Shown here: positions 14,051 to 37,700 of the stretch, piece after piece
How the letters are laid out: every line of letters begins with the position of its first letter
How positions within the stretch are numbered: the first letter of the stretch is position 1
From: a bacterium
GTDB lineage: Bacteria > Patescibacteriota > Patescibacteriia > SG8-24
DNA length: 45,120 nt
Direction of reading: 5' to 3'
Assembly (NCBI GenBank): GCA_021824285.1
Contig: JAKAKZ010000006.1
Location: 1-45,120 of the forward strand
Notes under the pieces: model-generated
What the model was told of the DNA's origin: nothing
The model's database searches: none
What the model saw: the letters and a program-made list of their open reading frames with translations, nothing else
Program-made: the position numbers and the translations under genes

Positions 14051-14098
14051 GTTTTCAAAGGACGTGCTATTCATATCATATTTTGGGCATTTTGTCAA
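14051..14098 (-). promoter_or_regulatory. Sigma70-like promoter followed by a boxA-like motif
   Basis: Minus strand: TTGACA-17-TATGAA (TGn-extended), 6 nt, GTCCTTTGAAAAC. Confidence 0.6.
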
Positions 14099-14222
14099 GA
14101 TTGGTTGACATCGGCGGAGATAAAAAGGAAAATATCCGCTTCCTATGCTTAAACCACTAGCGCCCAATCGCCAGATATGGTAAGAAGCCGCCAGGCTTAA
14201 GTGCCCGTATATCCGCGTATTT

Positions 14223-15617
14223 ATGTCCGAAGGGACGTCGCCGAGCGTACTGACCGCCGAGCCTGTTTCGGAAAACCAGGAAAAGACGCAACCCGAAGCC
14301 GCGCCCAAGAAGCGCCGGTTCGTGGCCTACCGCCTCGAACGCGACGCTCAGGCGGCTTCATTTTATTTCAATGAAGAATTCGAGGAGTGGGATCGCGCCG
14401 CCGCGGAGTACCGGCTCAAGCGCAGCCGCGCGGCCATCGCCGTACCGGCCGAGGCCCAGCGCCGCTTTATGGCCGGCGACGACGCCTTCCGCGTCACACT
14501 GGCGGAATTCTGCAACGGACTGCGCCGCGAGCTCGACGGCCGAGGCGTGAAGATGTATTTCGACATCGCCAAGGGCGAGGAAGCGGCAACGCCGGTCCGC
14601 GCCAAATGGACCTACTACCTGATGGGCCGCCGCGTGGACGAGTTGCTGGAGTGGGAACTCCTGCCGCCGGTCCGCGAGATGATCCGCGTGGCCGAGACGA
14701 ACCGCCATCTTTGGCCGCAGGTGGAAGGCGGGGAGGCGGTCGATGCGGAAACGGAGACCGAAGCGTTCCGCCGCCTGCGTCAGCTGCACCGGAAGTACGG
14801 CACTTGCCGCTATTACGAGACGCGCGAATGGAAACTCTGGTTCGGCCGGGCCATGCAGGCGAAGCGCGACCGGCTGATCACCGGCGAGCTCCAGCGGCTG
14901 TGCGACGAGCAGTTCCCCAGCGAGCCTTTCGGTCCGCGAGTGGAGCCGATTGCCGAGGAACTGGACGCGGTCATCCGTGCCAAGATCGTGGCCGAGGCCG
15001 AGGCCCTGCTTGAGGGCGTGGTTGGTCGCATGGACCTGCCGGCGGACGGCAGCACGGAAAGTTCGGCGGAACGCCACATTTCCGGACTGGCCAAATCGCT
15101 CGTCGAGCTGCTGTCGAACCGCTATAACGCCCAGTGTGAACGCCGCGCGGGGCGCGATTCCGTAGCCGCTTTGGTCCGCGAGACGCTCGACTTGCGCCGT
15201 CAGATTCGGGCGCGGGAAGAGGCTCGGACGGCTGCGGCCGCGGAGGAGATCTGCCGCCGGCTGGAGGACGGCGCGGGCGGCTTTAGCGTGGATATCGGTT
15301 CGGCGGAGGAGGGGCTGGAGCAGGTGCTGCGCCGCGTCACCGAGCGTTTTGTGAAGTACCCGCTGTCTGGCCTGCCGGAGGAGGCCGAGTACGATTCCGG
15401 TGCCGTGGAGATCATCGCTTCGCGCATCCGTATGTTGGCCTTCGGCGAGGCGACGCCGGCGCTCTCGGCCAAGTTCCGCAGCAATGTCGCGTCCTACGAT
15501 TCGGCGAGCGGCCGTCTGACCGTGCATGATGCGCGCCGCCTGGAATCCTTCGTCAACCGCCTCTACGCCGGGGTGGCGCCGAAGAGCGTCGCGAGCGAGA
15601 TGGCGCCGACCGCATGA
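14223..15617 (+). CDS. Hypothetical protein (464 aa, charged, probably helical)
   Basis: Long ORF with genome-typical codon bias and an AT-rich upstream region; no recognisable motif. Confidence 0.75.
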   Translation: MSEGTSPSVLTAEPVSENQEKTQPEAAPKKRRFVAYRLERDAQAASFYFNEEFEEWDRAAAEYRLKRSRAAIAVPAEAQRRFMAGDDAFRVTLAEFCNGLRRELDGRGVKMYFDIAKGEEAATPVRAKWTYYLMGRRVDELLEWELLPPVREMIRVAETNRHLWPQVEGGEAVDAETETEAFRRLRQLHRKYGTCRYYETREWKLWFGRAMQAKRDRLITGELQRLCDEQFPSEPFGPRVEPIAEELDAVIRAKIVAEAEALLEGVVGRMDLPADGSTESSAERHISGLAKSLVELLSNRYNAQCERRAGRDSVAALVRETLDLRRQIRAREEARTAAAAEEICRRLEDGAGGFSVDIGSAEEGLEQVLRRVTERFVKYPLSGLPEEAEYDSGAVEIIASRIRMLAFGEATPALSAKFRSNVASYDSASGRLTVHDARRLESFVNRLYAGVAPKSVASEMAPTA

Positions 15618-15685
15618 CGTCAATTGACATCGGTCTTTTTTCCGTGACATGATGACGCCATAGGCACTTATATCCGGAGATAATT

Positions 15686-15850
15686 ATGACCCTGCCCGCC
15701 TGGCAAATCGAAGAGATCGAAAAGGAGCGGCGACGTCGGGAACAGCCGGAGCGGGAAAGACCGCGTCTGCCGGTGCCGGAGCCGCCGCCACCGCCGGAGA
15801 AAGAACCGGACCGCAAAAAGGACGATGGCGTCATAACCATCGACTTGTGA
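15686..15850 (+). CDS. Small protein (54 aa, absent from the ORF track): MTLPAWQIEEIEKERRRREQPERERPRLPVPEPPPPPEKEPDRKKDDGVITIDL
   Basis: Promoter TTGACA(15624)-18-CATGAT, SD GGAG, ATG 15686 to TGA 15850, immediately followed by a terminator. Confidence 0.75.
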   Translation: MTLPAWQIEEIEKERRRREQPERERPRLPVPEPPPPPEKEPDRKKDDGVITIDL

Positions 15851-15867
15851 CGGACTACAATGGAGAC

Positions 15868-15898
15868 AGCCGTCCGCTTCGGGCGGCTTTTCTTTTTG
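15868..15898 (+). terminator. Intrinsic terminator
   Basis: AGCCGTCC-gcttc-GGGCGGCT followed by TTTCTTTTT. Confidence 0.8.
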
Positions 15899-15994
15899 TA
15901 TTGCCGCTGTCATGGCGTTCCATGACGTCTTTCAGCTTTAAAAAGGTAAAGTTGTTGTCTAGGCGCATGACAGCGTGATATCATGTCCGCAAAT

Positions 15995-16768
15995 ATGGAC
16001 GCTGTCCGTCTGCTGGAACAATTGGGACTGCCGCAACGGGAGATACGCGTCTACCTGGCCCTACTGACCGGAGGGCCTTCTTCGGTCCGGAAATTGGCCA
16101 AGGACACCGGCCTGAATCGCGGCAGCGCCTATGACGCGCTGAAATCCCTGCAGCAGCGCGGTCTCACGGGCATGTACCAGAAGCATAAGAAGCAGTTCTT
16201 TATGGCCGAAGAGCCGGAAAAGCTCTTGGACCTCGTGGAGCTTCAGGAGCGCTCGATCGTCTCGCTCAAACGCGGCGTCTCCGAAGCGCTGCCGGAGCTG
16301 CGGTCGCTTTATGTCCACGGCGGGAGCAAGCCGGTGGTCAAGTATTATGAGGGCCCGAAGGGCGTGAACATCATCCTGCATGACGTCCTGCGGACGATGT
16401 CCGAGAGCGCCGACAAGACCTACCGCGTCTACTCGTCCGTGGCTTTGCGTGAATATATCTACAAGGAATTTCCGCACTTCACGAAGGAACGGGTGGCCCG
16501 CGGCCTGCATGTGCGGGTCATCGCGGTTGGGGCCGGCGGCGCGGAGCAGCCGCTGTCGGAGCGGCGCTGGCTGCCGGCGCAGGACGGTTCGCCGACCTAC
16601 AATATCGTCTATGGCGGCAAGGTGGCTTTCCTGTCGCAGGACGGCCGTGGCGCGCTCATCGGCGTGCTCGTCGAGGACGAGCGGGTGGCCCAATCGGAGC
16701 GGCTTATCTTCGATCATGTCTGGGCCACGCTGGAGCAAGTGAAAACGCCGGTATGCGCTCGGTCGTGA
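15995..16768 (+). CDS. TrmB-family HTH transcriptional regulator
   Basis: LEQLGL..REIRVYLALL..G, HTH RGSAYDALKSLQQRGL, KPVVKYYEG; ATG 15995 preferred because the -10 TATCAT overlaps ATG 15983. Confidence 0.88.
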   Translation: MDAVRLLEQLGLPQREIRVYLALLTGGPSSVRKLAKDTGLNRGSAYDALKSLQQRGLTGMYQKHKKQFFMAEEPEKLLDLVELQERSIVSLKRGVSEALPELRSLYVHGGSKPVVKYYEGPKGVNIILHDVLRTMSESADKTYRVYSSVALREYIYKEFPHFTKERVARGLHVRVIAVGAGGAEQPLSERRWLPAQDGSPTYNIVYGGKVAFLSQDGRGALIGVLVEDERVAQSERLIFDHVWATLEQVKTPVCARS

Positions 16769-17712
16769 CCATCGGCGGGGGCACCGGGCAGTTCACCCTG
16801 CTTACGGGGCTGAAGAAATTCCCCGTGCGGCTGACGGCCGTGGTCTCGATGGCCGACGACGGCGGCTCGACCGGCGTGCTGCGCGACGAGCTCGGGGTGC
16901 TCCCCCCAGGGGACATCCGGCAGTGCCTCGTGGCGCTCGCCGAGGCCGACAGCGTGATGCGTGAGCTCTTCAGTTACCGGTTCGAGCAGGGCGGCATGCG
17001 CGGCCATAATTTCGGCAATCTCTTTCTGTCGGCGCTCGAGAAGCTCACCGGCAGTTTCGAAGAGGCGGTGCGCGTCTCCGGTTCGGTGCTCGCCACGCGG
17101 GGTACGGTGATTCCCGTGACTACGACGCCGATCAGCCTGGTCAACGACGCGGCGGAAGGCGGACGGGGCGAGAAGGCGGTCAATGACCGGCCCGTGCGCG
17201 ATCCGGCTGCCTTGCGGCTCGAACCGGCGGCCTTCGCCAACCCCCGGGCCGTGGAAGCCATCGAACAGGCCGACCTCATCGTCATCGGGCCGGGCAATCT
17301 CTACTGCAGCATCATCCCGAACCTGCTCGTGCGCGGCGTGGCCGAGGCCGTCCGCCGGTCGCCGGCCACGGTGGTCTACAACTGCAATCTGATGACTAAA
17401 GCCGGCCACACCGACGGTTTCGGCGTGGACGATTTCGTGCGCTCCATCGAGCGGCATATCGGTGAAGGACGGATCGATTTCGTGACCTTCAATGAGGCGG
17501 CACCCGACGCGGACCTCGTGGCCCGCTACGCGGAGGAGGGGACGCCGGTGCGCGCGCCGTCCGTTCCGGACCGGCGGCACTTGGCCGCGGACCTCTTGAG
17601 CCGTAGTGCGCCGGTCGAGCGGCCGGGCGATCCGCTGCGGCGGACGCTCATCCGTCATGACCCGGACGCCCTGGCCGCGCTCATCGTGCGCGAGTGCCTA
17701 AAGGGCGTTTGA
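16753..17712 (+). CDS. YvcK/GlmR (UPF0052, CofD-related) family protein
   Basis: VVTIGGGTG, ADDGGSTGVLRDELGVLPPGDIRQCL, GHNFGNL, GPGNLYCSIIPNL, RHDP. Confidence 0.93.
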   Translation: MRSVVTIGGGTGQFTLLTGLKKFPVRLTAVVSMADDGGSTGVLRDELGVLPPGDIRQCLVALAEADSVMRELFSYRFEQGGMRGHNFGNLFLSALEKLTGSFEEAVRVSGSVLATRGTVIPVTTTPISLVNDAAEGGRGEKAVNDRPVRDPAALRLEPAAFANPRAVEAIEQADLIVIGPGNLYCSIIPNLLVRGVAEAVRRSPATVVYNCNLMTKAGHTDGFGVDDFVRSIERHIGEGRIDFVTFNEAAPDADLVARYAEEGTPVRAPSVPDRRHLAADLLSRSAPVERPGDPLRRTLIRHDPDALAALIVRECLKGV

Positions 17713-17713
17713 G

Positions 17714-17796
17714 ACGCGGAGTGACGGAGTTGCGGAGGTTAGGAGCAATCGGCGTCGTCTCCTTCACCTCACCGCGACCTCGCCTCTTCTCCAACC
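17714..17796. repeat. Octamer array of the same family as 8408-8470 with a degenerate complementary arm
   Basis: ACGCGGAG TGACGGAG TTGCGGAG GTTAGGAG (17714-17745) then a CTCC/CCTC-rich tract. Confidence 0.7.
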
Positions 17797-18432
17797 ATGC
17801 TTATCATTCTCGACTTTGACTATACTCTTTTCGACACGGCGCGTTTCAAGGACGCGCTTGTCGCCGTGGTGGAGAAATGCGGGCCGACCCGCGAGGAGGT
17901 CCTGCGGAGCTATTCGGATGTGGTCAACCGGCCGGGTTGCGGCTACGACTACGATCCGGACCTGCAGCTGGAGCTTCTGGCGTCGCGCCTGACCTGTCCG
18001 CTCCACGAGGTGCGGGCAGCGCTCGACGCCGTGGCCGCACGGGCCGCAGCTTTCGTCTATCCTGGGGCGGCCGATTTTCTGGATGCCTTGCGCAGCCGCG
18101 GCCATCGGCTGGTTCTCCTGACGCTCGGCAACGATTCCTGGCAGCGGCTCAAGGTTCGGCATTCCGGTTTGGCGGAGCGTTTTGATACGTACGAGACCAC
18201 GTTACAGGACAAGGCGGCTGCGTTGCGACGGATCGCCGCCGCCGGCGAGGCCGTTGTCGTGAACGACAACGGTCGCGAAGTGGCGGCCATGCGGCGTTCC
18301 GTTCCTGGCTTGGCCTACATCATCAAACGCGGGCCAAAACCGCTGCCGGACGATCCCTCCATTCCGGTCTGTGACACCTACGGGGAAATTTTGGAGGTCA
18401 TTGACGGCTTGGCCGCGGCCCAGATGCGTTGA
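17797..18432 (+). CDS. HAD-superfamily hydrolase
   Basis: Motif I ILDFDYTLFD, YPGAADFL, motif II LLTLG, motif III K (QDK), motif IV-like VVVND. Confidence 0.85.
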   Translation: MLIILDFDYTLFDTARFKDALVAVVEKCGPTREEVLRSYSDVVNRPGCGYDYDPDLQLELLASRLTCPLHEVRAALDAVAARAAAFVYPGAADFLDALRSRGHRLVLLTLGNDSWQRLKVRHSGLAERFDTYETTLQDKAAALRRIAAAGEAVVVNDNGREVAAMRRSVPGLAYIIKRGPKPLPDDPSIPVCDTYGEILEVIDGLAAAQMR

Positions 18433-18516
18433 GGCCGAGGGTGACTGTTGGGTTCCGTGCGCCAATCGGCTAATCTGGTATTATTGTGTCTGTTTTCCGG
18501 TCACCGATCGTTGCCC

Positions 18517-19803
18517 ATGCGCTTCATCACCGACCTCCACATCCATTCCCGTTATTCGCGTGCCTGCTCCAAGCATCTTTCGGCGCCCAACTTGGCGGCG
18601 TGGGCGGCGGCCAAAGGCATCGACATTTTGGGCACCGGTGATTTTACCCATCCGGCCTGGCGGGCCCACCTTGAGGAAAATCTCGAGCCGGCGGAGGACG
18701 GCCTGTTCCGTGTGCGGTCCGGCATCGCCGAAGGCCGAGCTGACGGTTACGTTCCGGCGCCGACGGCCGCGCAGTCGCGGCCGGTGCGTTTTCTGCTTTC
18801 CGGCGAGATTTCCTGCATCTACAAGAAGAACGGCCGGACGCGCCGTCTGCATCTGGTCGTCCTCGCACCGTCGTTTGCGGCCGCAGAACTTTTGGCCAAG
18901 CGTCTGGAAGGCGATGGGTTCAACCTGCGTTCGGACGGCCGGCCGATTCTCGGTCTCGACGCCAAGGAGCTGCTCCGTTATGCGCTTGAGGCGGATCCGG
19001 ATTTCCTGGTGATCCCGGCGCACGCCTGGACACCGTGGTATTCGGTGTTCGGTTCCGAGTCCGGCTTCGATTCGCTGGAGGAGTGCTTCGAGGAGCTGAC
19101 GCCGCAGATTCACGCCATCGAAACCGGCCTGTCGTCTGATCCGCCGATGAACTGGCGGCTGTCCGCTCTCGATTCGGTGATGCTTGTCTCTAATTCGGAC
19201 GCGCATGGCGTGCGTAATCTTGGCCGCGAGGCCAACGTTTTCGATTTCGCCGCGCCGAGTTACGGCGCATTAGCCGACACATTGCGACAGCGCGATCGGA
19301 AGCGGTTTCTTTACACCATCGAATTCTTTCCGGAAGAGGGGAAATACCACGTGGACGGCCATCGTGTCTGTGATTTTCGCTGCGAGCCGGAGCAGACCGA
19401 GAAGCTGAAAGGACTCTGTCCAAAGTGCGGCAAACCGCTGGTGCGCGGCGTGTTGGGGCGCGTGCACGCCCTCGCCGACCGCCCGATCGGCGCACGACCC
19501 AAGGCGGCGGTGCCGTTCCGGAGCCTCGTGCCGCTCGAGGAATTGATCGGCGGCGCGCTGCATGTCGGTCGCGCCTCCAAGAAGGTCTTCGCTTCCTATT
19601 CGCAGCTCTTGACCAGGGTCGGGCCGGAGTTCGACGTGCTGCTGGACGCTCCGCTCGAGGAGATCGCCGCGGCTTCGACGGAACGCATCGCCGAGGCGGT
19701 GGAACGGATGCGCGCCGGTCGGCTGGCCATCACGCCGGGCTATGACGGAGTTTTCGGCACCGTGCGGGTGTTCGAGGAAAAAAAACAGGTTCGCCCAAGG
19801 TAA
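18517..19803 (+). CDS. Endonuclease Q-family (PHP domain plus Zn finger) protein
   Basis: DLHIHSRYSRA, GTGDFTHP, PAHAWTPW, ETGLSSDP, NSDAH, GKYH.DGHRVC..CPKCG, PGYDGVFG. Confidence 0.9.
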   Translation: MRFITDLHIHSRYSRACSKHLSAPNLAAWAAAKGIDILGTGDFTHPAWRAHLEENLEPAEDGLFRVRSGIAEGRADGYVPAPTAAQSRPVRFLLSGEISCIYKKNGRTRRLHLVVLAPSFAAAELLAKRLEGDGFNLRSDGRPILGLDAKELLRYALEADPDFLVIPAHAWTPWYSVFGSESGFDSLEECFEELTPQIHAIETGLSSDPPMNWRLSALDSVMLVSNSDAHGVRNLGREANVFDFAAPSYGALADTLRQRDRKRFLYTIEFFPEEGKYHVDGHRVCDFRCEPEQTEKLKGLCPKCGKPLVRGVLGRVHALADRPIGARPKAAVPFRSLVPLEELIGGALHVGRASKKVFASYSQLLTRVGPEFDVLLDAPLEEIAAASTERIAEAVERMRAGRLAITPGYDGVFGTVRVFEEKKQVRPR

Positions 19804-19828
19804 ACTGGAAATGTGAACTCTGCCGCAG

Positions 19829-19876
19829 TTGACCCACGCGGTATCGTATGGCAGGCTCACTGAAGCACCTTTGAGC
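19829..19876 (+). promoter_or_regulatory. Sigma70-like promoter plus boxA-like motif
   Basis: TTGACC-17-CAGGCT (TGn-extended), 7 nt, GCACCTTTGAG. Confidence 0.55.
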
Positions 19877-19902
19877 GGCGCGAGAATGCGCGGGAGTCGG
19901 TC

Positions 19903-20346
19903 ATGGCGCTTCGCGACGAAGCGGACTGGCAGGGCATTAGCTTCGTGAGCACCAACGTCGTCGGCAGCCTCCGCAAGAAGTCGCTGGTCGTGGACGGTTA
20001 CCAGTACGCCACCGAAGAGGAGGCGATGCTCGCCGAGATGCTGCTGCAGCAGGGGATTCAGTTCACGCCGAACGTTTCCTTCGGCATCGTCATGCCGACG
20101 CGCGGCGGGGCGACGGTCCCGTTCGTTCCGGACTTCATCTTCAACGGACGGGCCTACGTCTGGTCCGACAATGACGGCGAAATCCTGGTCCACGGTCTTG
20201 AGGCCAAGGGCAAGAAGGGAAAGACCCAGAAGGTCAGCCTCCTGTTCGCCCAGCGGCGGGTTCGCGTGCTGCTTTTGCGGAATCCGGTCATCCGTCGGTT
20301 CCACGATTCCGGCAATCCGTTGCCGCTCCGACCGTTCGTGCCATAG
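19903..20346 (+). CDS. Putative PD-(D/E)XK nuclease, T7 endonuclease I-like (paralog A)
   Basis: YATEEEAMLAEML..GIQF, FVPDFIF, HGLEAKG; SD GGGAG; own terminator. Confidence 0.7.
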   Translation: MALRDEADWQGISFVSTNVVGSLRKKSLVVDGYQYATEEEAMLAEMLLQQGIQFTPNVSFGIVMPTRGGATVPFVPDFIFNGRAYVWSDNDGEILVHGLEAKGKKGKTQKVSLLFAQRRVRVLLLRNPVIRRFHDSGNPLPLRPFVP

Positions 20347-20374
20347 CGCTCCTACTTGGGGGCGTTTTTTCTTT
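20347..20374 (+). terminator. Intrinsic terminator
   Basis: CGCTCCT-actt-GGGGGCG followed by TTTTTTCTTT. Confidence 0.75.
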
Positions 20375-20431
20375 GGCCGCCGCGCGGCCGCTCACCAGCC
20401 GCCGGAATGCCGCCAGATAGAAAGGGCCGCC

Positions 20432-20477
20432 TTGACCGCTGCCGCCGCGCATGTCAGGCTCGGATCGTTCTTTCCAT
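20432..20477 (+). promoter_or_regulatory. Sigma70-like promoter plus boxA-like motif
   Basis: TTGACC-17-CAGGCT (same hexamers as paralog A), 6 nt, GTTCTTTCCA. Confidence 0.55.
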
Positions 20478-20509
20478 CGGCCTCGGTGAGGTCGGATCGG
20501 AGCTGTCTC

Positions 20510-21004
20510 ATGTCGCTTAGCGACCAGGCAGATTGGGACGGGATTCAGATGGAATCCGCGGCTGTCGGCGCGAGGACGCGCCGGCGCCGGTGGCGCATCG
20601 ACGGAGTGCAGTACGTCTCCGAAGGCGAAGCGCTGTTGGCCCGACTGCTCATATTCATGGACATACCCTTCACGCCCGACGTGCCCATCCTGCTTAGACG
20701 GGAAGACGGACGAGCACCCTCGATACTGTACGTCCCGGATTTCATCCTGGATCGGGCCGCCTACATCTGGAGCTGGCCCAACGGTCGTCGGGAGGTCATC
20801 CACGGGCTGGAGGTCAAGGGTTCGACCAGGCCTCTTCCCGGAGTTGGGCGGCCGGTCAAGAAGTCCTATCGGCGCACGTTGGGCAAGATCATCCGCCTGC
20901 GTCAGGAGCGCAACATCAACGTGCTCCTGCTCACGGACCGCGAAGTCAGGCGCTACTTCCGTCACGGCCGCTTGCCGTTGCGCCCCCTGCCCGAGGCCCG
21001 GTGA
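20510..21004 (+). CDS. Putative PD-(D/E)XK nuclease, T7 endonuclease I-like (paralog B)
   Basis: Start fixed by alignment with paralog A (MSLSDQADWDGI vs MALRDEADWQGI); YVSEGEALLARLL, YVPDFIL, HGLEVKG, LPLRP. Confidence 0.7.
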   Translation: MSLSDQADWDGIQMESAAVGARTRRRRWRIDGVQYVSEGEALLARLLIFMDIPFTPDVPILLRREDGRAPSILYVPDFILDRAAYIWSWPNGRREVIHGLEVKGSTRPLPGVGRPVKKSYRRTLGKIIRLRQERNINVLLLTDREVRRYFRHGRLPLRPLPEAR

Positions 21005-21022
21005 CGCTGCAGACATACGTCG

Positions 21023-21050
21023 AAACCCCGCCGTCGCCGGCGGGGTTTTC
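21023..21050 (+). terminator. Intrinsic terminator of nuclease paralog B
   Basis: AAACCCCGCCG-tcgc-CGGCGGGGTTT. Confidence 0.8.
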
Positions 21051-21065
21051 CATATTGTGCCGCAA

Positions 21066-21096
21066 TAGAAACGCCCCCGCGGAATCCGCGGGGGCG
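21066..21096 (-). terminator. Intrinsic terminator of the response regulator
   Basis: CGCCCCCGCGG-aat-CCGCGGGGGCG with TTTCTA following on the minus strand. Confidence 0.75.
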
Positions 21097-21117
21097 CAAG
21101 TCTTTCGGGGTCCGGAT

Positions 21118-21489
21118 TCAGCCGGTAAGGTGCTTCCGGATCGTGGACACGAGGTGGTCGATGTCGAAGGGCTTCTTGATGACCTCGTTGATGTCCCGCA
21201 GGTTCTCGGAACCGTCGAACGCCTTGCCGGTCATCAGCACGATCGGCTTCTTGAAGCCGTGGTCGCGCAGCCGCAGGGCCAGGCCGATGCCGTCGAGGGC
21301 GTCGGGCGGCATCTGCAGGTCGGTGAGCACCAGGTCGGGTTCGAAACCACCGTGCGCGACGAGGTGCAGGGCGGCGGTCGGCCCATCGGCCGTGCAGACC
21401 GTCACGTCGGTCAGGGACATCTTCAGCACGCGCTCGATGACGAGGCGCAACGAGTGCTCGTCGTCGACGACGAGGATGTTCAAAGCCAT
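21118..21489 (-). CDS. Single-domain (CheY-like) response regulator
   Basis: ILVVDDE, phosphoacceptor DLVLTDLQMP, DG, VLMTG, KPF. Confidence 0.92.
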   Translation of the reverse strand: MALNILVVDDEHSLRLVIERVLKMSLTDVTVCTADGPTAALHLVAHGGFEPDLVLTDLQMPPDALDGIGLALRLRDHGFKKPIVLMTGKAFDGSENLRDINEVIKKPFDIDHLVSTIRKHLTG

Positions 21490-30232: not shown

Positions 30233-30691
30233 ATGTCCGGACCGTTCTACGTTTCCGCCGAAGGAATGAAGAAAATGGAAGATGAACTGGCCTATCTCAA
30301 GACGGCTAAACGCCTGGAGATGTCTGAACGCATCGAAAAGGCCAAGGACTTGGGCGACCTGCGCGAAAACGCCGACTATCAGGAGGCCAAGGACGAGCTG
30401 GCCAGCGTGGAAAGCCGCATCCTGGAGCTCTCCGATGCGCTGAAGCGCGCGGTCATCATCGAGGCGGCCGCCGGCGACATGGTGACGCTCGGGGCCAGCG
30501 TGACGGTGGCGGTCGGCGGCAAGGAAAAGGTCTTCCGGGTCGTCGGTTCGCATGAGGCGAACCCTTTGCAGGGCCTGATCTCCAATGAATCGCCCCTGGG
30601 CCGGGCCCTCCTGGGAAAGAAGGTCGGCGAGAGCGCCGAAGTGGCCGCCCCGTCGGGCACCATACGGTACGAAATCAGGAAAATCGGTTGA
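30233..30691 (+). CDS. greA: Transcription elongation factor GreA
   Basis: GDLRENADYQEAK, ISNESPLGRALLG. Confidence 0.97.
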   Translation: MSGPFYVSAEGMKKMEDELAYLKTAKRLEMSERIEKAKDLGDLRENADYQEAKDELASVESRILELSDALKRAVIIEAAAGDMVTLGASVTVAVGGKEKVFRVVGSHEANPLQGLISNESPLGRALLGKKVGESAEVAAPSGTIRYEIRKIG

Positions 30692-30697
30692 ATTAAT

Positions 30698-32200
30698 ATG
30701 CAATCAGAAAATCCCATCGAGGAGTCGGCCGTACGTCTGGAACGGCTTAACGCGCTCATCGCCGACGGCATCGATCCATATCCGTCGGCGAGCGCCCGCA
30801 CCCACAAGATCAGCCGGCTGCTTGCGGAGTTTGAGGCGCTGGTGGCCTCCCAGGAACCGGTCACGGTCGCCGGCCGCATTCGGGCCGTCCGCGGCCACGG
30901 TGGCGCGGCCTTCGCCGACTTGGAGGACGAATCCGGCAAGATCCAGCTGCATCTCAAGTCTGACGTGCTCGGCGCGGCCAAGTTCGCGTTTTTCGAGAAT
31001 CGCGTCAATCTCGGGGATTTCCTGCAGATCACGGGTGCGGCCTTCGTCACGCGCCGCGGCGAGAAGTCGTTGGAGGCACGCGATTTGACGGTCCTCACCA
31101 AGGCGCTGGCGCCGTTGCCGGACAAATGGCACGGCCTCACGGACGTGGAGATCCGCTACCGCAAGCGCTACCTGGACCTCATCGCCAGCCCGGAGGTCCG
31201 CGGCATTTTCCGCAAGCGGTCGCTTATCGTGCAGACCATCAGAGATTTTTTCCACCGTGAGGGTTTCATGGAAGTGGAGACGCCGATCCTGCAGCCCATC
31301 GCCGGCGGCGCGACCGCCCGCCCGTTCATCACGCACCATAATGCCCTGGACATCGATCTCTACCTGCGGATCGCCCCGGAGCTTTATCTCAAGCGTCTGG
31401 TCGTGGGCGGCTTCGAGCGCGTTTTTGAGATCGCCCGCTGTTTCCGCAACGAGGGCATCGACCACGCCCATAATCCGGAATTCACGCAGATCGAGTTCTA
31501 CCAGGCTTATGCCGACTACAACGACCTGATGGCCCTGACCGAGCGCCTGCTGCCGGAGATCGTCGGCAAGGTGACGGGCGGCAATACGCAGGTGACTTAT
31601 GCCGGCAAGACGGTCGATTTTGCGGCACCCTACCCGCGACTCAGTTTCCGCGATGCGCTCTTGGAGTACGGCGATTTCGACATCGAGAAGTATCCGGACC
31701 GCCATTCGTTGGCCAAGGCGGCGGCCGCTTGCGGCGTAGCTGTTGAGGACAAGGACGACCGTGGCGCCATTTTCGACAATCTTTACAAGAAGTTCGTCCG
31801 CCCGCGGATTGTGAACCCCACCTTTATCATCGACCAGCCGGTGGAGCTGTCGCCGCTCGCCAAGAAGAAGCGCGGCGACCAGCGTTACGTGGAGCGGTTC
31901 CAGCTGGTGCTCGCTGAAGGCACGGAACTGATCAATGCCTTTTCGGAGCTGAACGATCCGATCGACCAGCGTCAGCGCTTCGAAGAGCAGGAGCGGTTGC
32001 GCGAAAAGGGCGATGAGGAGGCCCAGCACATGGACGAGGACTACGTCGAGGCGCTGTCCGTCGGCCTGCCTCCCACGGCTGGTTTCGGCATGGGCATCGA
32101 TCGCCTGACTGCCATCCTGACCGATTCGCACAATCTCAAGGAAGTGATCCTTTTCCCGACTTTACGCCCTCTGCCGCCGGAGGCGGACAAGAAAGGCTGA
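30698..32200 (+). CDS. lysS: Lysine--tRNA ligase (class II)
   Basis: RYRKRYLDL, GGATARPF.THHNAL, LRIAPELYLKRL, FRNEG, NAFSELNDP, GLPPTAGFGMGIDRL. Confidence 0.98.
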   Translation: MQSENPIEESAVRLERLNALIADGIDPYPSASARTHKISRLLAEFEALVASQEPVTVAGRIRAVRGHGGAAFADLEDESGKIQLHLKSDVLGAAKFAFFENRVNLGDFLQITGAAFVTRRGEKSLEARDLTVLTKALAPLPDKWHGLTDVEIRYRKRYLDLIASPEVRGIFRKRSLIVQTIRDFFHREGFMEVETPILQPIAGGATARPFITHHNALDIDLYLRIAPELYLKRLVVGGFERVFEIARCFRNEGIDHAHNPEFTQIEFYQAYADYNDLMALTERLLPEIVGKVTGGNTQVTYAGKTVDFAAPYPRLSFRDALLEYGDFDIEKYPDRHSLAKAAAACGVAVEDKDDRGAIFDNLYKKFVRPRIVNPTFIIDQPVELSPLAKKKRGDQRYVERFQLVLAEGTELINAFSELNDPIDQRQRFEEQERLREKGDEEAQHMDEDYVEALSVGLPPTAGFGMGIDRLTAILTDSHNLKEVILFPTLRPLPPEADKKG

Positions 32201-32205
32201 AAAAA

Positions 32206-32808
32206 ATGAAAATATTGGTCGGTACAGCCAATCCCGGCAAGGCTCGCGAGCTCGTGGAGCTGCTGGCCGGAACCGGCATCGAAGTCGTCTCGCTTCGCGA
32301 TGTCGGACTCTCGGCCATTGAGGAGACCGGGACGACTTTCGAGGAGAACGCCCTGCTTAAGGCCCGCACCTACGCCGCGGCGAGCGGACTGCCGTGCCTC
32401 GCTGACGATGGGGGACTGGAGATAGATGCCTTGGACGGCGCGCCGGGCGTCTATTCGCACCGCTGGGCCGGCGAACAGGCGTCGGATTTCGATTTGGCCG
32501 AGAAGGTCATCGTCAGTTTGGCCGACGTGCCGGCTGACGGCCGGTCGGCTCGGCTGCGCACGGTCCTGGCGTTCACGATGCCCGATGGCGAAAGCCTGAC
32601 CGTCGACCGTTCCATCGCCGGACGGATCGCGATGTCATATGATCGAGCCAAAATCCAATCCGGCTATCCCTACCGTTCGCTGCTCATCGTGGACCGTTAC
32701 GGGAAGTTGTTCGCGGATCTGACACACGAGGAGCATGAGGCGGTAAACCATCGTAGGGCCGCGTTGCGGGAGATACTGCCGACCGTCATCGAGATGCTGA
32801 AAGTTTAG
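32206..32808 (+). CDS. HAM1/RdgB-family non-canonical purine NTP pyrophosphatase
   Basis: TANPGKARE, EETGTTFEENALLKA, LADDGGLEIDALDGAPGVYS, NHR. Confidence 0.9.
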   Translation: MKILVGTANPGKARELVELLAGTGIEVVSLRDVGLSAIEETGTTFEENALLKARTYAAASGLPCLADDGGLEIDALDGAPGVYSHRWAGEQASDFDLAEKVIVSLADVPADGRSARLRTVLAFTMPDGESLTVDRSIAGRIAMSYDRAKIQSGYPYRSLLIVDRYGKLFADLTHEEHEAVNHRRAALREILPTVIEMLKV

Positions 32809-32849
32809 AGCTGCCCCGCCTCCTATCTTTAGTCTGAGATGGCGGGAAA

Positions 32850-32931
32850 AGTTGGGAGTTATTCGTCCTAAATTGCGCTCAACAGCGCAATTTTTTATAA
32901 ACATTTAGCGCTAAACCGTAAACTCCCAACT
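32850..32931. repeat. 11-bp inverted repeat and heptamer array enclosing a terminator
   Basis: AGTTGGGAGTT (32850-32860) / AACTCCCAACT (32921-32931); TAAACAT TTAGCGC TAAACCG TAAACTC CCAACTC. Confidence 0.6.
32870..32896 (+). terminator. Intrinsic terminator
   Basis: AAATTGCGCT-caac-AGCGCAATTT followed by TTT. Confidence 0.8.
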
Positions 32932-33007
32932 CCTTCAGCGGCAATGCTTGCCGCAAGCCACTCGCCGTGGCATGATAAAGGAGCGCAGAGTGCGCATATT
33001 TTTGCTT

Positions 33008-34276
33008 ATGATCGACATCAAACTCGTGCGGGAAAATCCGAACGGCGTGCGCCAGGGAGCGGCCGCCAAGAATGTGGACGTGGACATCGACGCCATCCTG
33101 AAACTGGACTCCGAACGCCGTCGGCTGATCGGCGAATCGGAAAAACTGAAGGCGGACCAGAACCGCGCCTCCGACGAGATCTCCAAGGAGAAAGATGCGG
33201 CGGCACGCCAGGCTAAGATCGCCGTCGTGAAGGAGTCAAAGGAAAAGATGAAGGCACTCGAGTCAGAGCTGCAGGCCGCCGAGGCGGCGCTCGACAAGGC
33301 CCTGCGGCTCATACCGAACCTGCCGCGTCCCGACGTGAAGATCGGCAAGGACGATACTTTCAACTACGTGATCCGTAGCTTCAAGGAACCGACCAAGTTC
33401 GGTTTCGAACCGAAGGATTACATGACGCTTGGCGAGGCGCTCGACATCATCGACACGGAGCGGGCCGCCAAGGTCTCAGGCGCCCGTTTCGGCTACCTCA
33501 AGGGCGATGGGGCCATGCTGGAGTTTGCCTTAGTTCAGTACGCGCTGCATCTGCTGGCGGCCGAGGGTTTTACGCCGGTAGTGCCGCCGGTGATGGTGGG
33601 TGAACGCGCGATGGCGGCGATGGGATACCTGGATCGCGGCCGCGATGAGATTTACCGTCTGCAGGAAGACAATCTCTATCTCGTCGGCACCTCCGAGCAG
33701 TCCATCGGTCCGATGCACATGGACGAGACGTTCCGCGAGGCCGAGCTGCCGCGCCGCTATGTGGGTTTCTCGACCTGCTTCCGCCGTGAGGCCGGCTCCT
33801 ACGGCAAGGACACGCGGGGCATCCTGCGCGTGCACCAGTTCGACAAGCTGGAGATGTTCTCCTTCACCGTGCCGGAGAAGTCCGACGACGAGCATCTCAA
33901 GCTATTGGCGCTGGAAGAGAAGCTGCTGCAGGGCCTGGGCCTGCCGCACCACGTGCTCGGTATCTGTTCCGGCGATCTCGGCGATCCGGCGGCTCGGAAA
34001 TACGACTTGGAGACCTGGATTCCGTCGCAGAAGACCTACCGCGAAACGCATTCGACTTCTACCTGCACGGATTACCAGTCGCGCCGCCTGAACATCCGGG
34101 TGCGGCGCGATGACGGACGGATGGAGTTCGTGCACACGTTGAACGGCACGGCCTTCGCCATCGGCCGCATCATCATCGCCATCATCGAGAATTTCCAGCA
34201 GGCCGACGGTTCCATCGAGATTCCGGCGGTCTTAGCGCCCTACATGGGCGGCAAGACGCATATCCGTCCGGCCTGA
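33008..34276 (+). CDS. serS: Serine--tRNA ligase
   Basis: MIDIKLVREN, KVSGARF, LVGTSE, CFRREAGSYGKDTRG.LRVHQF, HTLNGTA; promoter TTGCCG(32948)-17-CATGAT. Confidence 0.98.
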   Translation: MIDIKLVRENPNGVRQGAAAKNVDVDIDAILKLDSERRRLIGESEKLKADQNRASDEISKEKDAAARQAKIAVVKESKEKMKALESELQAAEAALDKALRLIPNLPRPDVKIGKDDTFNYVIRSFKEPTKFGFEPKDYMTLGEALDIIDTERAAKVSGARFGYLKGDGAMLEFALVQYALHLLAAEGFTPVVPPVMVGERAMAAMGYLDRGRDEIYRLQEDNLYLVGTSEQSIGPMHMDETFREAELPRRYVGFSTCFRREAGSYGKDTRGILRVHQFDKLEMFSFTVPEKSDDEHLKLLALEEKLLQGLGLPHHVLGICSGDLGDPAARKYDLETWIPSQKTYRETHSTSTCTDYQSRRLNIRVRRDDGRMEFVHTLNGTAFAIGRIIIAIIENFQQADGSIEIPAVLAPYMGGKTHIRPA

Positions 34277-34284
34277 AACCGCCT

Positions 34285-35427
34285 ATGGCCCGACCCCAGG
34301 GGACCAAGACCTGGATCGAAGTTTCCCGCGGCGCGCTCCGCGCCAATGCGGCGGCTTTGAAACGTTCGGCACCGAACAGCCGGCTCATTTGCGTGGTCAA
34401 ATCCAACGCCTACGGCCACGGCACGGCGGAGACGGTCCGGGCCCTGCGCGGCCGAGCGGACTGGTTTGCGGTCGACTCTTTGGCGGAAGCGCAGGCCGTG
34501 CGGTCGGCTGCGGCGGCCGAACCAGTCCTGATATTGGGCTACACGCTCCACGAAAACCTGAAGGCTGCCGTCCGGTCCGGCTTCCGTCTCACCGTTTACA
34601 ATCCAGAAACGGCTCGGCAGCTGGCTGTCTTGGCCACCGCCCGCCATCCGGCGCATGTCCACCTGAAAATCGAAACCGGAACGTCGCGGCAGGGGATACT
34701 GGAGGACGACCTGCCGGCGCTCTTGAGGATCCTGCGGCGCAATCCGCACGTCATCGTGGAAGGCGCTTCGACGCACTTCGCCAATATCGAAGACACCACG
34801 GATTCGTCCTACGCCCGCGGCCAGCTGCGCCGCTACCTGAAAGCGGTGGCGGTCATCGAGTCCAGCGGCCGTCCGGTCGCCGTGAAGCACACCGCCTGCA
34901 GTGCGGCGGCCATACTTTTTCCGGAAACGCATTTCGATGCCGTGCGGACGGGGATCGCTCTTTATGGGCTTTGGCCGTCGGCGGAAACGAAAGTCTCGGC
35001 GCGGTCTTCCGGCCGTTCCCTGGAATTGCGCACCGCGCTCGTCTGGAAGACGCTCGTGGCGCAGGTCAAGGCGCTGCCGGCCGGAACGCCGGTGAGTTAC
35101 GGATTGACCGAGAAGCTGACCCGCCGCTCCAATGTGGCCGTGATGCCGATTGGCTACTGGGACGGGCTGGACCGCGGCCTGTCATCGGTCGGGCATGTCC
35201 TGATTCGCGGTCGTCGGGCCAAGATCCTCGGTCGCGTCTGCATGAACATGTGCGTCGTGGACGTGACGGAGATTCCTGGCGTTCGGCCGGAGGATGAAGC
35301 CATCATCATCGGACCACAAAAAGAAGAACGCATTGCGGCGGAGGAAGTCGCGCGTCAGCTCGGCACCATAAATTATGAAGTGGTCACTCGCATCAACCCG
35401 ACGCTTCCTCGGGTGCTGGTCGCCTGA
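34285..35427 (+). CDS. alr: Alanine racemase
   Basis: VVKSNAYGHG, HLKIETG, THFA, RTGIALYG, VSYG, GRVCMN, GTINYE. Confidence 0.97.
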   Translation: MARPQGTKTWIEVSRGALRANAAALKRSAPNSRLICVVKSNAYGHGTAETVRALRGRADWFAVDSLAEAQAVRSAAAAEPVLILGYTLHENLKAAVRSGFRLTVYNPETARQLAVLATARHPAHVHLKIETGTSRQGILEDDLPALLRILRRNPHVIVEGASTHFANIEDTTDSSYARGQLRRYLKAVAVIESSGRPVAVKHTACSAAAILFPETHFDAVRTGIALYGLWPSAETKVSARSSGRSLELRTALVWKTLVAQVKALPAGTPVSYGLTEKLTRRSNVAVMPIGYWDGLDRGLSSVGHVLIRGRRAKILGRVCMNMCVVDVTEIPGVRPEDEAIIIGPQKEERIAAEEVARQLGTINYEVVTRINPTLPRVLVA

Positions 35428-35432
35428 CGCTT

Positions 35433-36599
35433 ATGCCCAATAGCCGCAGGAAAATCCGGGTCGCGGTAATCTACGGCGGCCAATCAGGCGAGCATGAGGT
35501 TTCCGTGCAGACCGCGGCTTCCGTGCTCGCGGCGCTCAACCCGAGGCGCTATGAAATTCTGCCCGTCCTTGTCGATCGTGAAGGACGCTGGTCCGTAGAA
35601 ACAGCACTCTTGCCGGCCGCACGGCACGGCCGTCCGCCGGTCAGTGGGCCCCGTGCTCTGCTGCCGAACGGCGGTACCGTGGCCTTGAGCCTGCCCAACG
35701 GACGTCAGGCGGAAAGGATCGACTTCGTCCTGCCGCTCATCCACGGCACCGGCGGGGAAGACGGCTGTCTGCAAGGTCTCCTGGAGCTGACTGGCTTGCC
35801 ATATGCCGGTAGCGGCGTGTTGGGTTCGGCGCTCGGCATGGATAAGATCGCGCAGAAGATGGTCTTGGCCCAGGCGGGCCTGCCGCTTGTCGCCTATCGC
35901 CATTTTACGGATGCGGATTGGACTGGCGAGCGGTCACGCATCATCGCGGAGATTGAAGAGGCGCTCGGCTATCCGTGCTTCGTCAAACCGGCAAATCTCG
36001 GTTCGTCGGTCGGCATCAGCAAGGCCCATCACCGCCGGGAACTGCTCGCGGGCGTTGTTGACGCATTGCGCTATGACCGCCGCATCATCGTGGAGCGCGC
36101 CGTGCCTCAGGCGCGGGAAATTGAGTGCGGCGTGCTCGGCAACGACCGGGCTCGAGTCTCGGTCTTCGGCGAGATTCGCCCATCCAACGAGTTCTACGAT
36201 TACGACGCCAAATACTTGAGCGGCAAATCAGCAATGGAGATTCCGGCCGATCTGCCCGCTGAAACGTGCCGCGAGATGGCCGAGATGGCGCGGAACGCGT
36301 TCCGGGCCTTGGACTGCGCCGGCATGGCCCGCGTCGACTTCCTGGTAGCGCGCGCGACGAACGATATCTACCTGAACGAAGTCAACACCGTCCCGGGCTT
36401 CACGCGGCACAGCATGTTCCCTAGGCTTTGGGAGGCGAGCGGGTTGCCGTATGCGGGCCTGTTGGATGAGCTGATCGCCGCGGGCCTGGAACGTCACCGC
36501 ACCCGCGCCTCGCTCCAGCGTATATATGAAACCGCTGCGCAAGCAGCGGCTACCAGGAAAACTTCACGCGTCCGCCGCAAAGCACCCCGTAGAAGTTAA
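35433..36599 (+). CDS. ddl: D-alanine--D-alanine ligase
   Basis: GGQSGEHEVS, HGTGGEDG, GSSVG, FYDYDAKY (Tyr omega loop, D-Ala-D-Ala type), RVDF, NEVNTVPG. Confidence 0.96.
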   Translation: MPNSRRKIRVAVIYGGQSGEHEVSVQTAASVLAALNPRRYEILPVLVDREGRWSVETALLPAARHGRPPVSGPRALLPNGGTVALSLPNGRQAERIDFVLPLIHGTGGEDGCLQGLLELTGLPYAGSGVLGSALGMDKIAQKMVLAQAGLPLVAYRHFTDADWTGERSRIIAEIEEALGYPCFVKPANLGSSVGISKAHHRRELLAGVVDALRYDRRIIVERAVPQAREIECGVLGNDRARVSVFGEIRPSNEFYDYDAKYLSGKSAMEIPADLPAETCREMAEMARNAFRALDCAGMARVDFLVARATNDIYLNEVNTVPGFTRHSMFPRLWEASGLPYAGLLDELIAAGLERHRTRASLQRIYETAAQAAATRKTSRVRRKAPRRS

Positions 36600-36602
36600 G
36601 GT

Positions 36603-37640
36603 ATGTTCGGACTTCAGCCGCGCCCCCAGCGCCGAAAATTCAAGGATTTCGCCAGGAACCAGTACGGCCACGCCGGCGGTTTTAACCATCGTTCTTCCCG
36701 CAAGCCCGCGCCGGCACGACGTGCCGTGCTGGCCGTTTTTCTGGCGGCGCTCGCGGCCGTGGTCGTCGGCACGGTTTTTTGGTTCGTCGCTTGGGGCGGC
36801 ACGCTGCGGGTGACCGAAATTGACGTGCGCGGCGCTTCGCCGGCGACCGAGAAGCGGATCCGTGCCCTGGTCGATGAGAGCTTGGCCGAGCGGATTCTGG
36901 GTTTCCTGCCGCGCACTAACGTACCCTTGTTCGATTCAGCCGCGCTTGAATCCGCCATTCGCCGGAATTTTTTCCTGGATTCGCTGACCGTCACGACGCG
37001 CCTGCCTCGCAACCTGACCGTGGAAGTGAAGGAGAAGCAGGTCCGGGCCGTGATGATCTCGGGCAGCCGCTTCCTAGGGCTCGATGCCTCCGGATTCGTG
37101 GTGCGCGACCTGACCGACAAGGAGGTCCGGGATATCGTGGACCTGCCGGAAGACATGGCCGGGCTCATGGCACCGTCGCTTGGCGCCGAGCAGATTGTCC
37201 TGCCCAAGGAGGCTGCGGGCGGCTCGGTAAGGAAGAACCGCAACCCTTTACCATTGTGCGTGGACGGCACGCACTATGACACGGCCCGCCCCGGCGATCC
37301 TACGCCGGGTAAACAGGTCTTTTCGCCGGCCATCATGGAACTTGTCATGACGGCCTATTCGCGCCTGCCGGATATCGCCGGGCCGGTGCGCTGGTTCAAG
37401 GTGGACGAGGCCGGCGAATCGGTGCAGGCCACACTGACAGACGGTTGGGACGCCTACTTCACTTCTGCTCTGCCTTTTGACAAGCAGGGCAGCAACTTGG
37501 TCCTGGTCCTCAAGGACAAGGTCAAGGACCGGATTGCTGACCTTCTATATATAGATCTGCGCTACAACGAGAGGATTTTCATCAAATATAAGGAGGGGAC
37601 TGCGGCGGGGGATAGCTCGGCCGCCCCGCCGAAGCCTTGA
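36603..37640 (+). CDS. ftsQ: FtsQ/DivIB-like cell division protein
   Basis: Basic N-terminus, single TM, POTRA-like LPRNLTVEVKE, C-terminal YIDLRY; follows ddl. Confidence 0.75.
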   Translation: MFGLQPRPQRRKFKDFARNQYGHAGGFNHRSSRKPAPARRAVLAVFLAALAAVVVGTVFWFVAWGGTLRVTEIDVRGASPATEKRIRALVDESLAERILGFLPRTNVPLFDSAALESAIRRNFFLDSLTVTTRLPRNLTVEVKEKQVRAVMISGSRFLGLDASGFVVRDLTDKEVRDIVDLPEDMAGLMAPSLGAEQIVLPKEAAGGSVRKNRNPLPLCVDGTHYDTARPGDPTPGKQVFSPAIMELVMTAYSRLPDIAGPVRWFKVDEAGESVQATLTDGWDAYFTSALPFDKQGSNLVLVLKDKVKDRIADLLYIDLRYNERIFIKYKEGTAAGDSSAAPPKP

Positions 37641-37653
37641 TTTTAAGGCTAAC

Positions 37654-37700
37654 TTGCCAAGTTTCGACCATCTGTTAAGGTGGTTTTTGTCCTTTACAAC
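37654..37700 (+). promoter_or_regulatory. Promoter plus boxA-like motif of ftsH
   Basis: TTGCCA-16-TAAGGT (TGn-extended), 7 nt, GTCCTTTACAAC. Confidence 0.5.

Follow-up and report, generated by a model that had tools for sequence, protein, structure and literature searches.

Nus factors are generally regarded as dedicated to ribosomal RNA (rRNA) operons, phages and a handful of messenger RNAs (mRNAs), and to our knowledge gene regulation in bacteria of the candidate phyla radiation (CPR) is almost unknown. The described systems closest to the one presented here are the BoxA sites. The NusB-NusE heterodimer, in which NusE is ribosomal protein S10, reads only 8 nucleotides (nt) of BoxA, whose function is lost on changes at positions 2, 5 and 6 (PMC3177189). 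In gamma-proteobacteria, the boxA consensus GYTCTTTAANA occurs at 0-7 sites per genome within 50 nt of gene starts, notably at suhB and rpsJ, and the suhB boxA represses translation (PMC5725501). In the rRNA operons of Bacillus subtilis, a small 5' hairpin is followed by AUGAUCUUUGAAA, which is bound by NusB according to nuclear magnetic resonance (PMC13753749). BoxA-like words in mRNA leaders are thus already known. Here we analyse a heptamer, G-Y-Y-C-T-T-T (Y, pyrimidine), that stands at the predicted 5' end of a class of mRNAs in a member of the Patescibacteriota, and five sites of which were pointed out in a preliminary description of contig JAKAKZ010000006.1. This whole 45-kb contig (45,120 nt; C5) is referred to as the window; it belongs to a genome of 1.33 Mb in 75 contigs, with 63% G+C and an estimated completeness of about 96% (G000, the genome under study; other G numbers denote relatives).

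Genes were taken from 1245 calls of a simple codon-bias caller whose start choice takes the Shine-Dalgarno (SD) sequence into account; the set is rough, start choice favours an SD by design, and the promoter matrices are generic. We distinguish a loose motif, G-Y-(N)-Y-CTTT, the strict heptamer, G-Y-Y-C-T-T-T, and a wider skeleton, G-N-N-C-N-T-T, which was defined post hoc with the data already seen. The preliminary description had proposed positional enrichment over background as a check; carried out genome-wide, this check bears the observation out, with an effect much larger than five sites. The loose motif is 3.5 times as dense in intergenic as in coding DNA (1.06 versus 0.30 per kb), and 18 of 213 stringent intergenic promoters have its first letter 6-10 nt past the -10 hexamer, against 12 for the next 23 positions together. 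After all 1948 genomic TTGAC words, YCTTT peaks at +36 to +40 with 72 occurrences, versus about 3.7 per position elsewhere, and the combined pattern TTGAC-N29-33-GYYCTTT has 51 matches, compared with 4 for the reversed pattern and 3 for a spacing of N49-53. Relative to gene starts, the strict heptamer is found 20-32 nt upstream 81 times in the sense and twice in the antisense orientation (936 genes that have 40 nt or more of free DNA upstream), and its G lies 15-40 nt before the start in 87 of the 884 genes for which this free stretch measures 60 nt or more, against 7 in antisense. All four forms share this strand bias in the -48 to -8 windows of the 884 genes: GTCCTTT (32 sense, 1 antisense, 1.6 expected), GTTCTTT (23 and 1), GCTCTTT (22 and 3) and GCCCTTT (14 and 2). 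Single-letter variants are rare at every position, so that all seven positions are specific. Of the 86 promoters carrying the motif, 68 have it beginning 7-10 nt past the -10, and in several genes it lies 25-50 nt after the -10, behind a hairpin; the -10 of motif promoters is often of the TAAGGT or TAGGGT type with TG in front. These results support the view that the heptamer is a positional, strand-specific element at the predicted 5' end of an mRNA class.

Raw motif counts are inflated because two repeated sequences contain motif-like words. One is a repeat of about 45 nt, GCGGGACCCCGCCTTCTTTGACTGAAGATAGGGGGCGGGGCAACTC, which occurs with its variants near transfer RNA (tRNA) genes on contigs C4, C7, C8, C10, C39, C42, C72 and C75; the other is a separate palindrome, GGGGACAGTCCC...GGGACTGTCCCC, on contigs C17 and C39.

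The genes that carry the heptamer share several traits. An SD is present in 82 of the 87 motif genes versus 312 of the 797 others (odds ratio 25), an association that is partly circular because start choice rewards an SD, and the motif precedes the SD in these 82 genes by 0-22 nt, mostly 4-9; among all 1245 called genes, the scorer finds no SD in 768. Operon-internal genes almost never have the motif (2/284, and 2/65 of those with an SD), compared with 82 of 394 promoter-proximal SD genes. Motif genes tend to stand alone, with no same-strand gene within 60 nt downstream (79/85 versus 565/746 of the others, p = 1e-4), and are shorter (median 194 versus 243 amino acids). They also belong less often to a Pfam family at E <= 1e-6 (26/76 versus 48/74, p = 3e-4), a comparison in which 76 of the 87 motif genes, those on 40 stretches and the window, were set against a random 74 of the 409 controls there (797 in total), and in which one control (window 12559-13878) is really a motif gene, the J-like orphan described below, mislabelled because its called start is far from its motif. 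Annotated motif genes encode FtsH, two ClpP, three M50, M48, M3 and trypsin-like proteases, four HAD hydrolases, guanylate kinase and similar proteins, and none is a core information-processing gene; the controls include IF3, release factors, RpoA, DnaG, Pol I, ThrRS and SmpB. The stand-alone, non-core class put forward in the preliminary description therefore holds as a tendency, also in that 50 of 76 motif genes versus 26 of 74 controls have no Pfam family, but not as a rule, given the inclusion of FtsH, ClpP, guanylate kinase and M50 proteases.

A stronger correlate than accessory status is a short, SD-led leader. When 507 predicted promoters were sorted by the distance from the -10 to the start codon, both the motif and the skeleton were absent from the leaderless type (5-14 nt; 0/62 each), the motif was present in 52 of 130 promoters of the 27-40 nt class, and the skeleton was present in 72 of the 102 members of that class that have an SD, where 2.8% is expected. 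The skeleton then falls to 27/128 at 40-70 nt and to 10/135 at 70 nt or more. The motif was not found at the +1 position of 45 tRNA upstream regions or of the two 16S promoters.

Enrichment is lineage-restricted. Counting a genome as enriched when the promoter-plus-heptamer pattern is at least three times as frequent as its reversed control, 21 of 23 genomes of the family qualify (for example, 54 versus 3 and 41 versus 3), as do 5 of 13 genomes of the sister family and 0 of 4 more distantly related members of the class. When the phylum was sampled evenly, a similar excess was seen in about 9 of 120 genomes, the genome under study ranking highest. The relatives compared all have genomes of 0.7-1.6 Mb.

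Orthologous loci separate the heptamer from the predicted transcription start. Orthologues of ftsH were matched in 39 of 41 genomes, and the ten best relatives were read: the TGCTAAGGT-type promoter is kept, with a TAAGGT -10 in 7 of the 10 loci, and in 6 of the 10 a hairpin is followed by GTTCTTT, GGTCTTT or GTTCCTTT, a word that lies about 25-30 nt downstream of the -10 and 21-24 nt ahead of the ATG. In one further relative (G012) the hairpin precedes TCTTTGACAAC, which contains CTTTGACAA, the core of that genome's own 16S-leader box; the remaining three loci are ambiguous. As the G is kept in these words away from +1, the heptamer is not merely a start-site preference. The FtsH protein of the genome under study has as its best named matches, at only 52-53% identity, metagenome-assembled genomes of Candidatus Gracilibacteria and Peribacteria; the other matches are scattered across phyla, so that the comparison says little about affiliation.

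Two genes for Nus factors are of particular relevance. Among 30 rpsJ loci, G[AGT]TCTTT occurs in the tuf-rpsJ spacer of 17 of 18 family genomes, and G[AC][TC]CTTT (GATCTTT or GCCCTTT) directly abuts the ATG in 10 of 10 sister-family genomes; the heptamer was not found upstream of rpsJ in two class-level genomes. For nusB, 27 of 30 loci were read, two AT-rich class-level loci and one at a contig edge being set aside, and G[TC]CCTTT(T) abuts the ATG in all seven sister-family loci read; in the genome under study, GCTCCTT abuts the ATG of nusB, and the motif was not found upstream of its nusG. An ATG-abutting heptamer is no general habit of the sister family, in which GYYCTTT(N)ATG occurs 3-19 times per genome versus 13-37 times for the reversed pattern. 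In one of these genomes (G025) the three matches are rpsJ, nusB and an ATG closed after 30 codons, and of 15 other matches 10 are closed within 31 codons and 5 stay open for 68-228 codons. The placement before rpsJ, and before nusB in the sister family, matches the pattern of Nus autoregulation described for gamma-proteobacteria (PMC5725501).

The best explanation of these observations is that G-[U/C]-[C/U]-C-U-U-U acts as an RNA-level element between the 5' end, or a 5' hairpin, and the SD. We tentatively go one step further and read it as a BoxA-type site for the NusB-S10 heterodimer in short mRNA leaders, acting beside the SD, a reading suggested by sequence comparison that we consider quite possible, if short of probable. 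The heptamer, constrained at every position, equals the published NusB-NusE core when compared with GYTCTTTAANA, UGCUCUUUAACA and AUGAUCUUUGAAA (PMC3177189, PMC5725501, PMC13753749), and it coincides with the GAUCUUU inside the NusB-binding box of B. subtilis (PMC13753749). NusB (C10:5569-5946), NusG (C59) and S10 (C14) are all encoded, of which the preliminary description had asked for NusB and NusG to be confirmed, and its proposal of a Nus-factor-marked mRNA class gains further from the positional element, the identity with the BoxA core and the rpsJ and nusB loci; it loses by the different word in the rRNA leaders and by the failure to find Rho, both discussed below. Mechanistically, NusB-S10 would bind the heptamer in the mRNA leader and, bound 0-22 nt upstream of the SD, would control access of the 30S subunit, as at Escherichia coli suhB. 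In the genome under study the heptamer would sit at +1 because a leader of 20-32 nt has no room for it otherwise; in relatives with longer leaders it would follow the 5' hairpin, comparable to the hairpin-then-box order of rRNA operon leaders. Translation of about 100 mostly lineage-specific genes would thereby be tied to the free NusB-S10 pool and so to rRNA synthesis. The full scenario, which we regard as doubtful as a whole, is that in a Rho-less, ultra-small order NusB-S10 was recruited from the rRNA operons to about 100 stand-alone, SD-led mRNAs headed by a minimal BoxA, and that free NusB-S10, tracking ribosome synthesis, would gate the translation or elongation of a lineage-specific surface, protease and orphan proteome and would autoregulate nusB and rpsJ on their start codons.

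Several observations weigh against assigning the heptamer to NusB-S10. The preliminary description had looked for agreement with the organism's own rRNA box, and this expectation largely failed: the rRNA leaders keep TTGACAA and have purines before CTTT, not G-Y-Y. In 21 genomes the 16S leaders carry CTTTGACAAT or near variants, with purines before CTTT within the family, and the box of the 16S leader in the genome under study, GGGACTTTGACAATG, overlaps the processing stem. The 23S leaders, taken from 14 relatives because the 23S gene of the genome under study is cut by a contig end, read N-T-T-G-A-C-A-A-Y-T-G-A-A, mostly without CTTT. Aligned in a common register, the rRNA boxes and the mRNA heptamer have only G2, C5, U7 and U8 in common, and the mRNA motif has no conserved 3' half, since after CTTT there is no conservation and G is depleted (18/106). 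The Rho RNA-binding domain, whose presence the preliminary description had likewise wished to see confirmed, was not found in the 96%-complete genome, so that classical anti-Rho antitermination has no obvious role. In one relative of the same family (G007), in which the pattern has 15 matches versus 3 reversed, NusB was found neither with the Pfam model nor with the protein of the genome under study; the assembly is rated 100% complete, but as it lies in 70 contigs this absence is weak evidence.

The Nus-factor loci also carry reservations. The rpsJ heptamer of the family lies inside the spacer of a predicted leaderless promoter and would therefore be in the RNA only on read-through from tuf, and most family occurrences before nusB coincide with the end of the rpmF terminator hairpin and its T tract, and are ambiguous. 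The predicted unpaired probability of the heptamer is 0.56, versus 0.52 in shuffled leaders (p = 0.17), which gives no sign of selection for an unpaired state. Finally, the scale of at least 87 sites, against 0-7 per genome in gamma-proteobacteria (PMC5725501), together with a skeleton that 72 of the 102 short SD-led leaders contain, resembles a standard component of leaders more than a regulon. Because the rRNA leaders conserve another word, and because binding by NusB-S10 is a proposal, we do not file the heptamer as a proven BoxA.

Some features of the rRNA-type boxes deserve mention in their own right. The word CTTT[GA]A[CA]AA has 16 matches in the genome, 10 of them intergenic; they include those in the 16S leader, at the J-like orphan and in a leader on contig C21. 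The last of these is a full rRNA-type box, GGAACTTTGACAATC, on the minus strand about 35 nt ahead of an unannotated gene for 330 amino acids (script position 27529), and it is preceded by a TGCTAAGGT promoter and a GC-rich hairpin. The 16S gene, on the stretch G000:C63:1-3981, stands alone, with two strong tandem promoters and its own terminator, and is unlinked from the 23S gene (contig C6). We read the GGTTCTTT in the 16S leader as a coincidence, because its hairpin sequence is not kept in relatives.

Other explanations do not involve NusB. At the level of the ribosome, the heptamer might be a pyrimidine tract that borders the 30S footprint on its 5' side and serves an S1-like protein or the 30S platform as a landing or enhancer site, so aiding initiation on very short SD-led leaders. 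Its position 20-32 nt before the start and mostly 4-9 nt upstream of the SD in 82 of the 87 genes would suit such a site, as would the S1-like protein of four domains and 418 amino acids encoded in the genome, and the frequency of the skeleton in short SD-led leaders is what would be expected of a general part. We nevertheless hold this to be unlikely: the operon-internal SD genes lack the heptamer (2/65), so that the action at any SD to be expected of an S1-type enhancer is not seen, and the word is too specific for the pyrimidine preference of S1, which is loose. In the sister family the heptamer abuts the ATG of the SD-less nusB and rpsJ, where action as an upstream enhancer is impossible, and the link with the SD on which the idea draws is in part a product of the start caller. 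A relation to the SD of a different kind, in which the heptamer mimics the anti-SD, pairs with the SD of its own mRNA and masks the ribosome site in a 5' hairpin, is highly improbable. CCTTT is complementary to SDs of the AAGG and AGGA types, and a stem of 4-5 base pairs can be drawn at ftsH and at the response regulator of the window; however, in 12 of the 87 genes the motif and the SD-like tetramer are separated by 3 nt or less, where no such hairpin can form, so that SD masking is not a general function, and pairing is no higher than in the shuffled leaders mentioned above. Pairing of the heptamer with 16S rRNA was rejected as well, with 0 complementary sites in the 16S gene versus 0.58 expected.

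The proximity to the -10, within 7-10 nt in 68 of 86 motif promoters, could instead be that of a DNA-level promoter element, a lineage-specific start or initially transcribed sequence that sets the start or eases escape at weak promoters with G/C-containing -10 hexamers. The frequent TAAGGT- and TAGGGT-type hexamers preceded by TG agree with this, and with a purine at +1 and a pyrimidine next to it the motif conforms to the published 'start' element; T tracts in the initial region are reported in many bacteria (PMC12641261). Yet the heptamer is missing from the leaderless promoters, the two 16S promoters and the +1 positions of tRNAs, and the base before its G is a pyrimidine in only 53 of 106 cases, without the enrichment that a general 'start' element would show. 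It also lies 25-50 nt after the -10, behind a hairpin, in ftsH orthologues and several genes of the genome under study, and where it abuts start codons, in the sister family, no promoter stands in register, which leaves a promoter element distinctly unlikely. The same independence of the start site in relatives, with strand specificity, would be shared by a site for some other sequence-specific RNA-binding factor, for instance a protein that also recognises the 3' tail of 16S rRNA and acts on mRNA stability or translation. This tail ends in CACCTCCTTT and contains TCCTTT, six of the seven letters of the commonest variant, GTCCTTT, and the restriction of the enrichment to this lineage, with 21 of the 23 genomes in the family and about 9 of 120 across the phylum, would fit a factor of this kind. 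We consider it hardly probable, because no candidate protein was identified and the placement at the start codons of nusB and rpsJ is left unexplained. Cold-shock proteins bind similar words; they were dropped as readers of the heptamer since no protein with a cold-shock domain was found in the genome under study.

In the window, all five motif strings of the preliminary description are present. Four of them, at the J-like orphan, the nuclease-like genes A and B and ftsH, lie 6-7 nt after a -10-like hexamer, as had been claimed, and the spacing from the -35 (TTGAC or TTGCC) to the -10 is 16-17 nt. At the J-like orphan, on the minus strand, the promoter read by eye at 14098-14070 consists of TTGACA (14098-14093), a spacer of 17 nt and TATGAA (14075-14070), and the motif GTCCTTTGAAAAC at 14063-14051 begins 6 nt after the -10, at the predicted +1, with GTCCTTT followed by GAAAAC; it is one of only 16 genome matches to the rRNA-type word CTTT[GA]A[CA]AA. 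The open frame extends over 12559-14058 and has no Pfam family, and the caller places its start at 13878. The leader may be long, because at 14010-14024 on the minus strand a strong SD (AAGGAG, 14024-14019) precedes an out-of-frame TTG that opens a frame of 22 codons; this frame may be a small upstream open reading frame, or the real start may be elsewhere.

On the plus strand, nuclease A has TTGACC at 19829-19834 and, after 17 nt ending in TGG, CAGGCT at 19852-19857 (promoter 19829-19857); its motif, the 8-letter variant GCACCTTT (19865-19872), lies 7 nt past the -10 and 31 nt ahead of the ATG, which is at 19903. Nuclease B has TTGACC at 20432-20437 and, after 17 nt ending in TGT, CAGGCT at 20455-20460 (promoter 20432-20460), with GTTCTTT (20467-20473) placed 6 nt past the -10 and 36 nt ahead of the ATG (20510). 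CAGGCT is a poor -10, with 2 of 6 consensus letters, but it is preceded by TG. The two genes are paralogues without a Pfam family that share this unusual promoter (TTGACC, 17 nt ending in TG-N, CAGGCT), which appears to have been duplicated together with the gene. For ftsH (plus strand), the promoter at 37654-37681 comprises TTGCCA (37654-37659), 16 nt and TAAGGT (37676-37681), and GTCCTTT (37689-37695) stands 7 nt after the -10, ahead of an SD-like AAGG (37702-37705) and the ATG at 37712. The orphan response regulator (minus strand) differs in having a motif of the leader-internal type, not at +1: its promoter at 21589-21561 is made up of TTGACA (21589-21584), 17 nt and TAATCT (21566-21561), and GCTCTTT (21510-21504) lies 50 nt downstream of the -10 and is separated by 4 nt from the SD (AAAGGA), which agrees with its reported position beside the SD.

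None of these promoters is listed in the strict scan over 12000-22000, the stretch that contains the J-like orphan, both nucleases and the response regulator. Terminator-like hairpins were seen downstream of three genes, at 20345-20366 for nuclease A, at 21097-21071 for the response regulator and at 12530-12502 for the J-like gene. As had also been noted, the motif is missing at the corresponding place of mreB, greA, serS, thiI and the gene for a TrmB-family regulator. Counting both strands, the window contains 33 occurrences of the loose motif, so that its position is informative and its presence alone is not. The gene content of the window is ordinary housekeeping (Suf, ThiI, MetRS, MreBCD, PBP2, GreA, LysRS, SerS, Ddl, FtsH and others), and a search across it with Rfam gave zero families at the gathering score. 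For window 30001-40000, the sequencing runs listed as containing this DNA are four DNA runs of a single study, with no RNA run among them.

Other upstream signatures were seen beside the heptamer. Predicted leaderless mRNAs are numerous, a start codon lying 5-14 nt after a near-consensus -10 in 62 of the 507 promoters (for example, thiI, 6416-6456, plus strand). A second upstream signature consists of G-poor, CA-rich repeats (AAACTCCA, CTCCACACTCC, CTAAACC), often ending in CTYCCGAT, which run directly up to the ATG in genes without an SD and, for at least six tRNAs, up to the mature 5' end, with no evident TTGACA or TATAAT. In the window they occur upstream of 7735 (plus), 5234 (minus) and 5872 (minus) and before serS near 32900-32947 (plus). 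ACTCCA is found 36 times in the sense and once in the antisense orientation in the upstream windows of 884 genes, and the CA-rich repeats may represent a different promoter or leader class. Near the end of the window, a perfect inverted repeat, TTAGCACTC-N9-GAGTGCTAA (43825-43851, plus strand), follows the promoter TTGACA at 43792-43797 and precedes a ClpB-like gene starting at 43869; we take it to be the CIRCE/HrcA heat-shock operator.

If the proposed reading of the heptamer is true, a word heading about one in ten genes would make NusB-S10 a global regulator, and would connect ribosome production with accessory-proteome expression in CPR bacteria in a simple way that is open to testing. If another factor reads the heptamer, three separable expression classes are still defined, namely leaderless mRNAs, G-poor CA-rich leaders and heptamer-plus-SD leaders, and the sequence rule can improve the annotation of start sites and operons in the lineage. 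As far as our searches show, BoxA-like mRNA words are unprecedented on this scale, as the first letters of the transcript and in this phylum: a search on boxA in Patescibacteria or the CPR gave titles of microbiome surveys only, and one on the CPR with Shine-Dalgarno and promoter did not have the motif among its listed topics, the scope being the literature apart from the supplements of PMC5725501 and PMC12641261, which could bear on novelty.

Of the known systems, the mRNA BoxA of gamma-proteobacteria (E. coli suhB and putative sites at rpsJ and other genes; Baniulyte et al. 2017, PMC5725501) shares the first seven letters, GYTCTTT, of its consensus GYTCTTTAANA with the element described here, and likewise lies within 50 nt of the start, near the SD and before the Nus factor gene rpsJ, to which nusB is added here. 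It differs in number, with 0-7 sites per genome versus at least 87, and in its AANA tail, which is missing from the heptamer, while the heptamer usually forms the first letters of the predicted transcript; moreover, repression at suhB is completed by Rho (PMC5725501), which was not found in the genome under study. The antiterminator of rRNA leaders in E. coli and B. subtilis (PMC13753749) has the same order of hairpin and heptamer as the ftsH orthologues and several leaders of the genome under study, and the NusB-binding box of B. subtilis contains GAUCUUU, the form found before rpsJ in this lineage. Here, in contrast, the word heads protein-coding, SD-led single-gene transcripts, and the organism's own 16S and 23S leaders keep TTGACAA, not G-Y-Y-C. 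The promoter 'start' element with its T-rich initial region (Kuo et al. 2025, PMC12641261) likewise has a purine at +1 and a pyrimidine next to it, at a distance of 7-8 nt from the -10, and T's soon after, whereas the heptamer has seven specific letters instead of three, belongs to one promoter class only and, in relatives, is found away from the start site.

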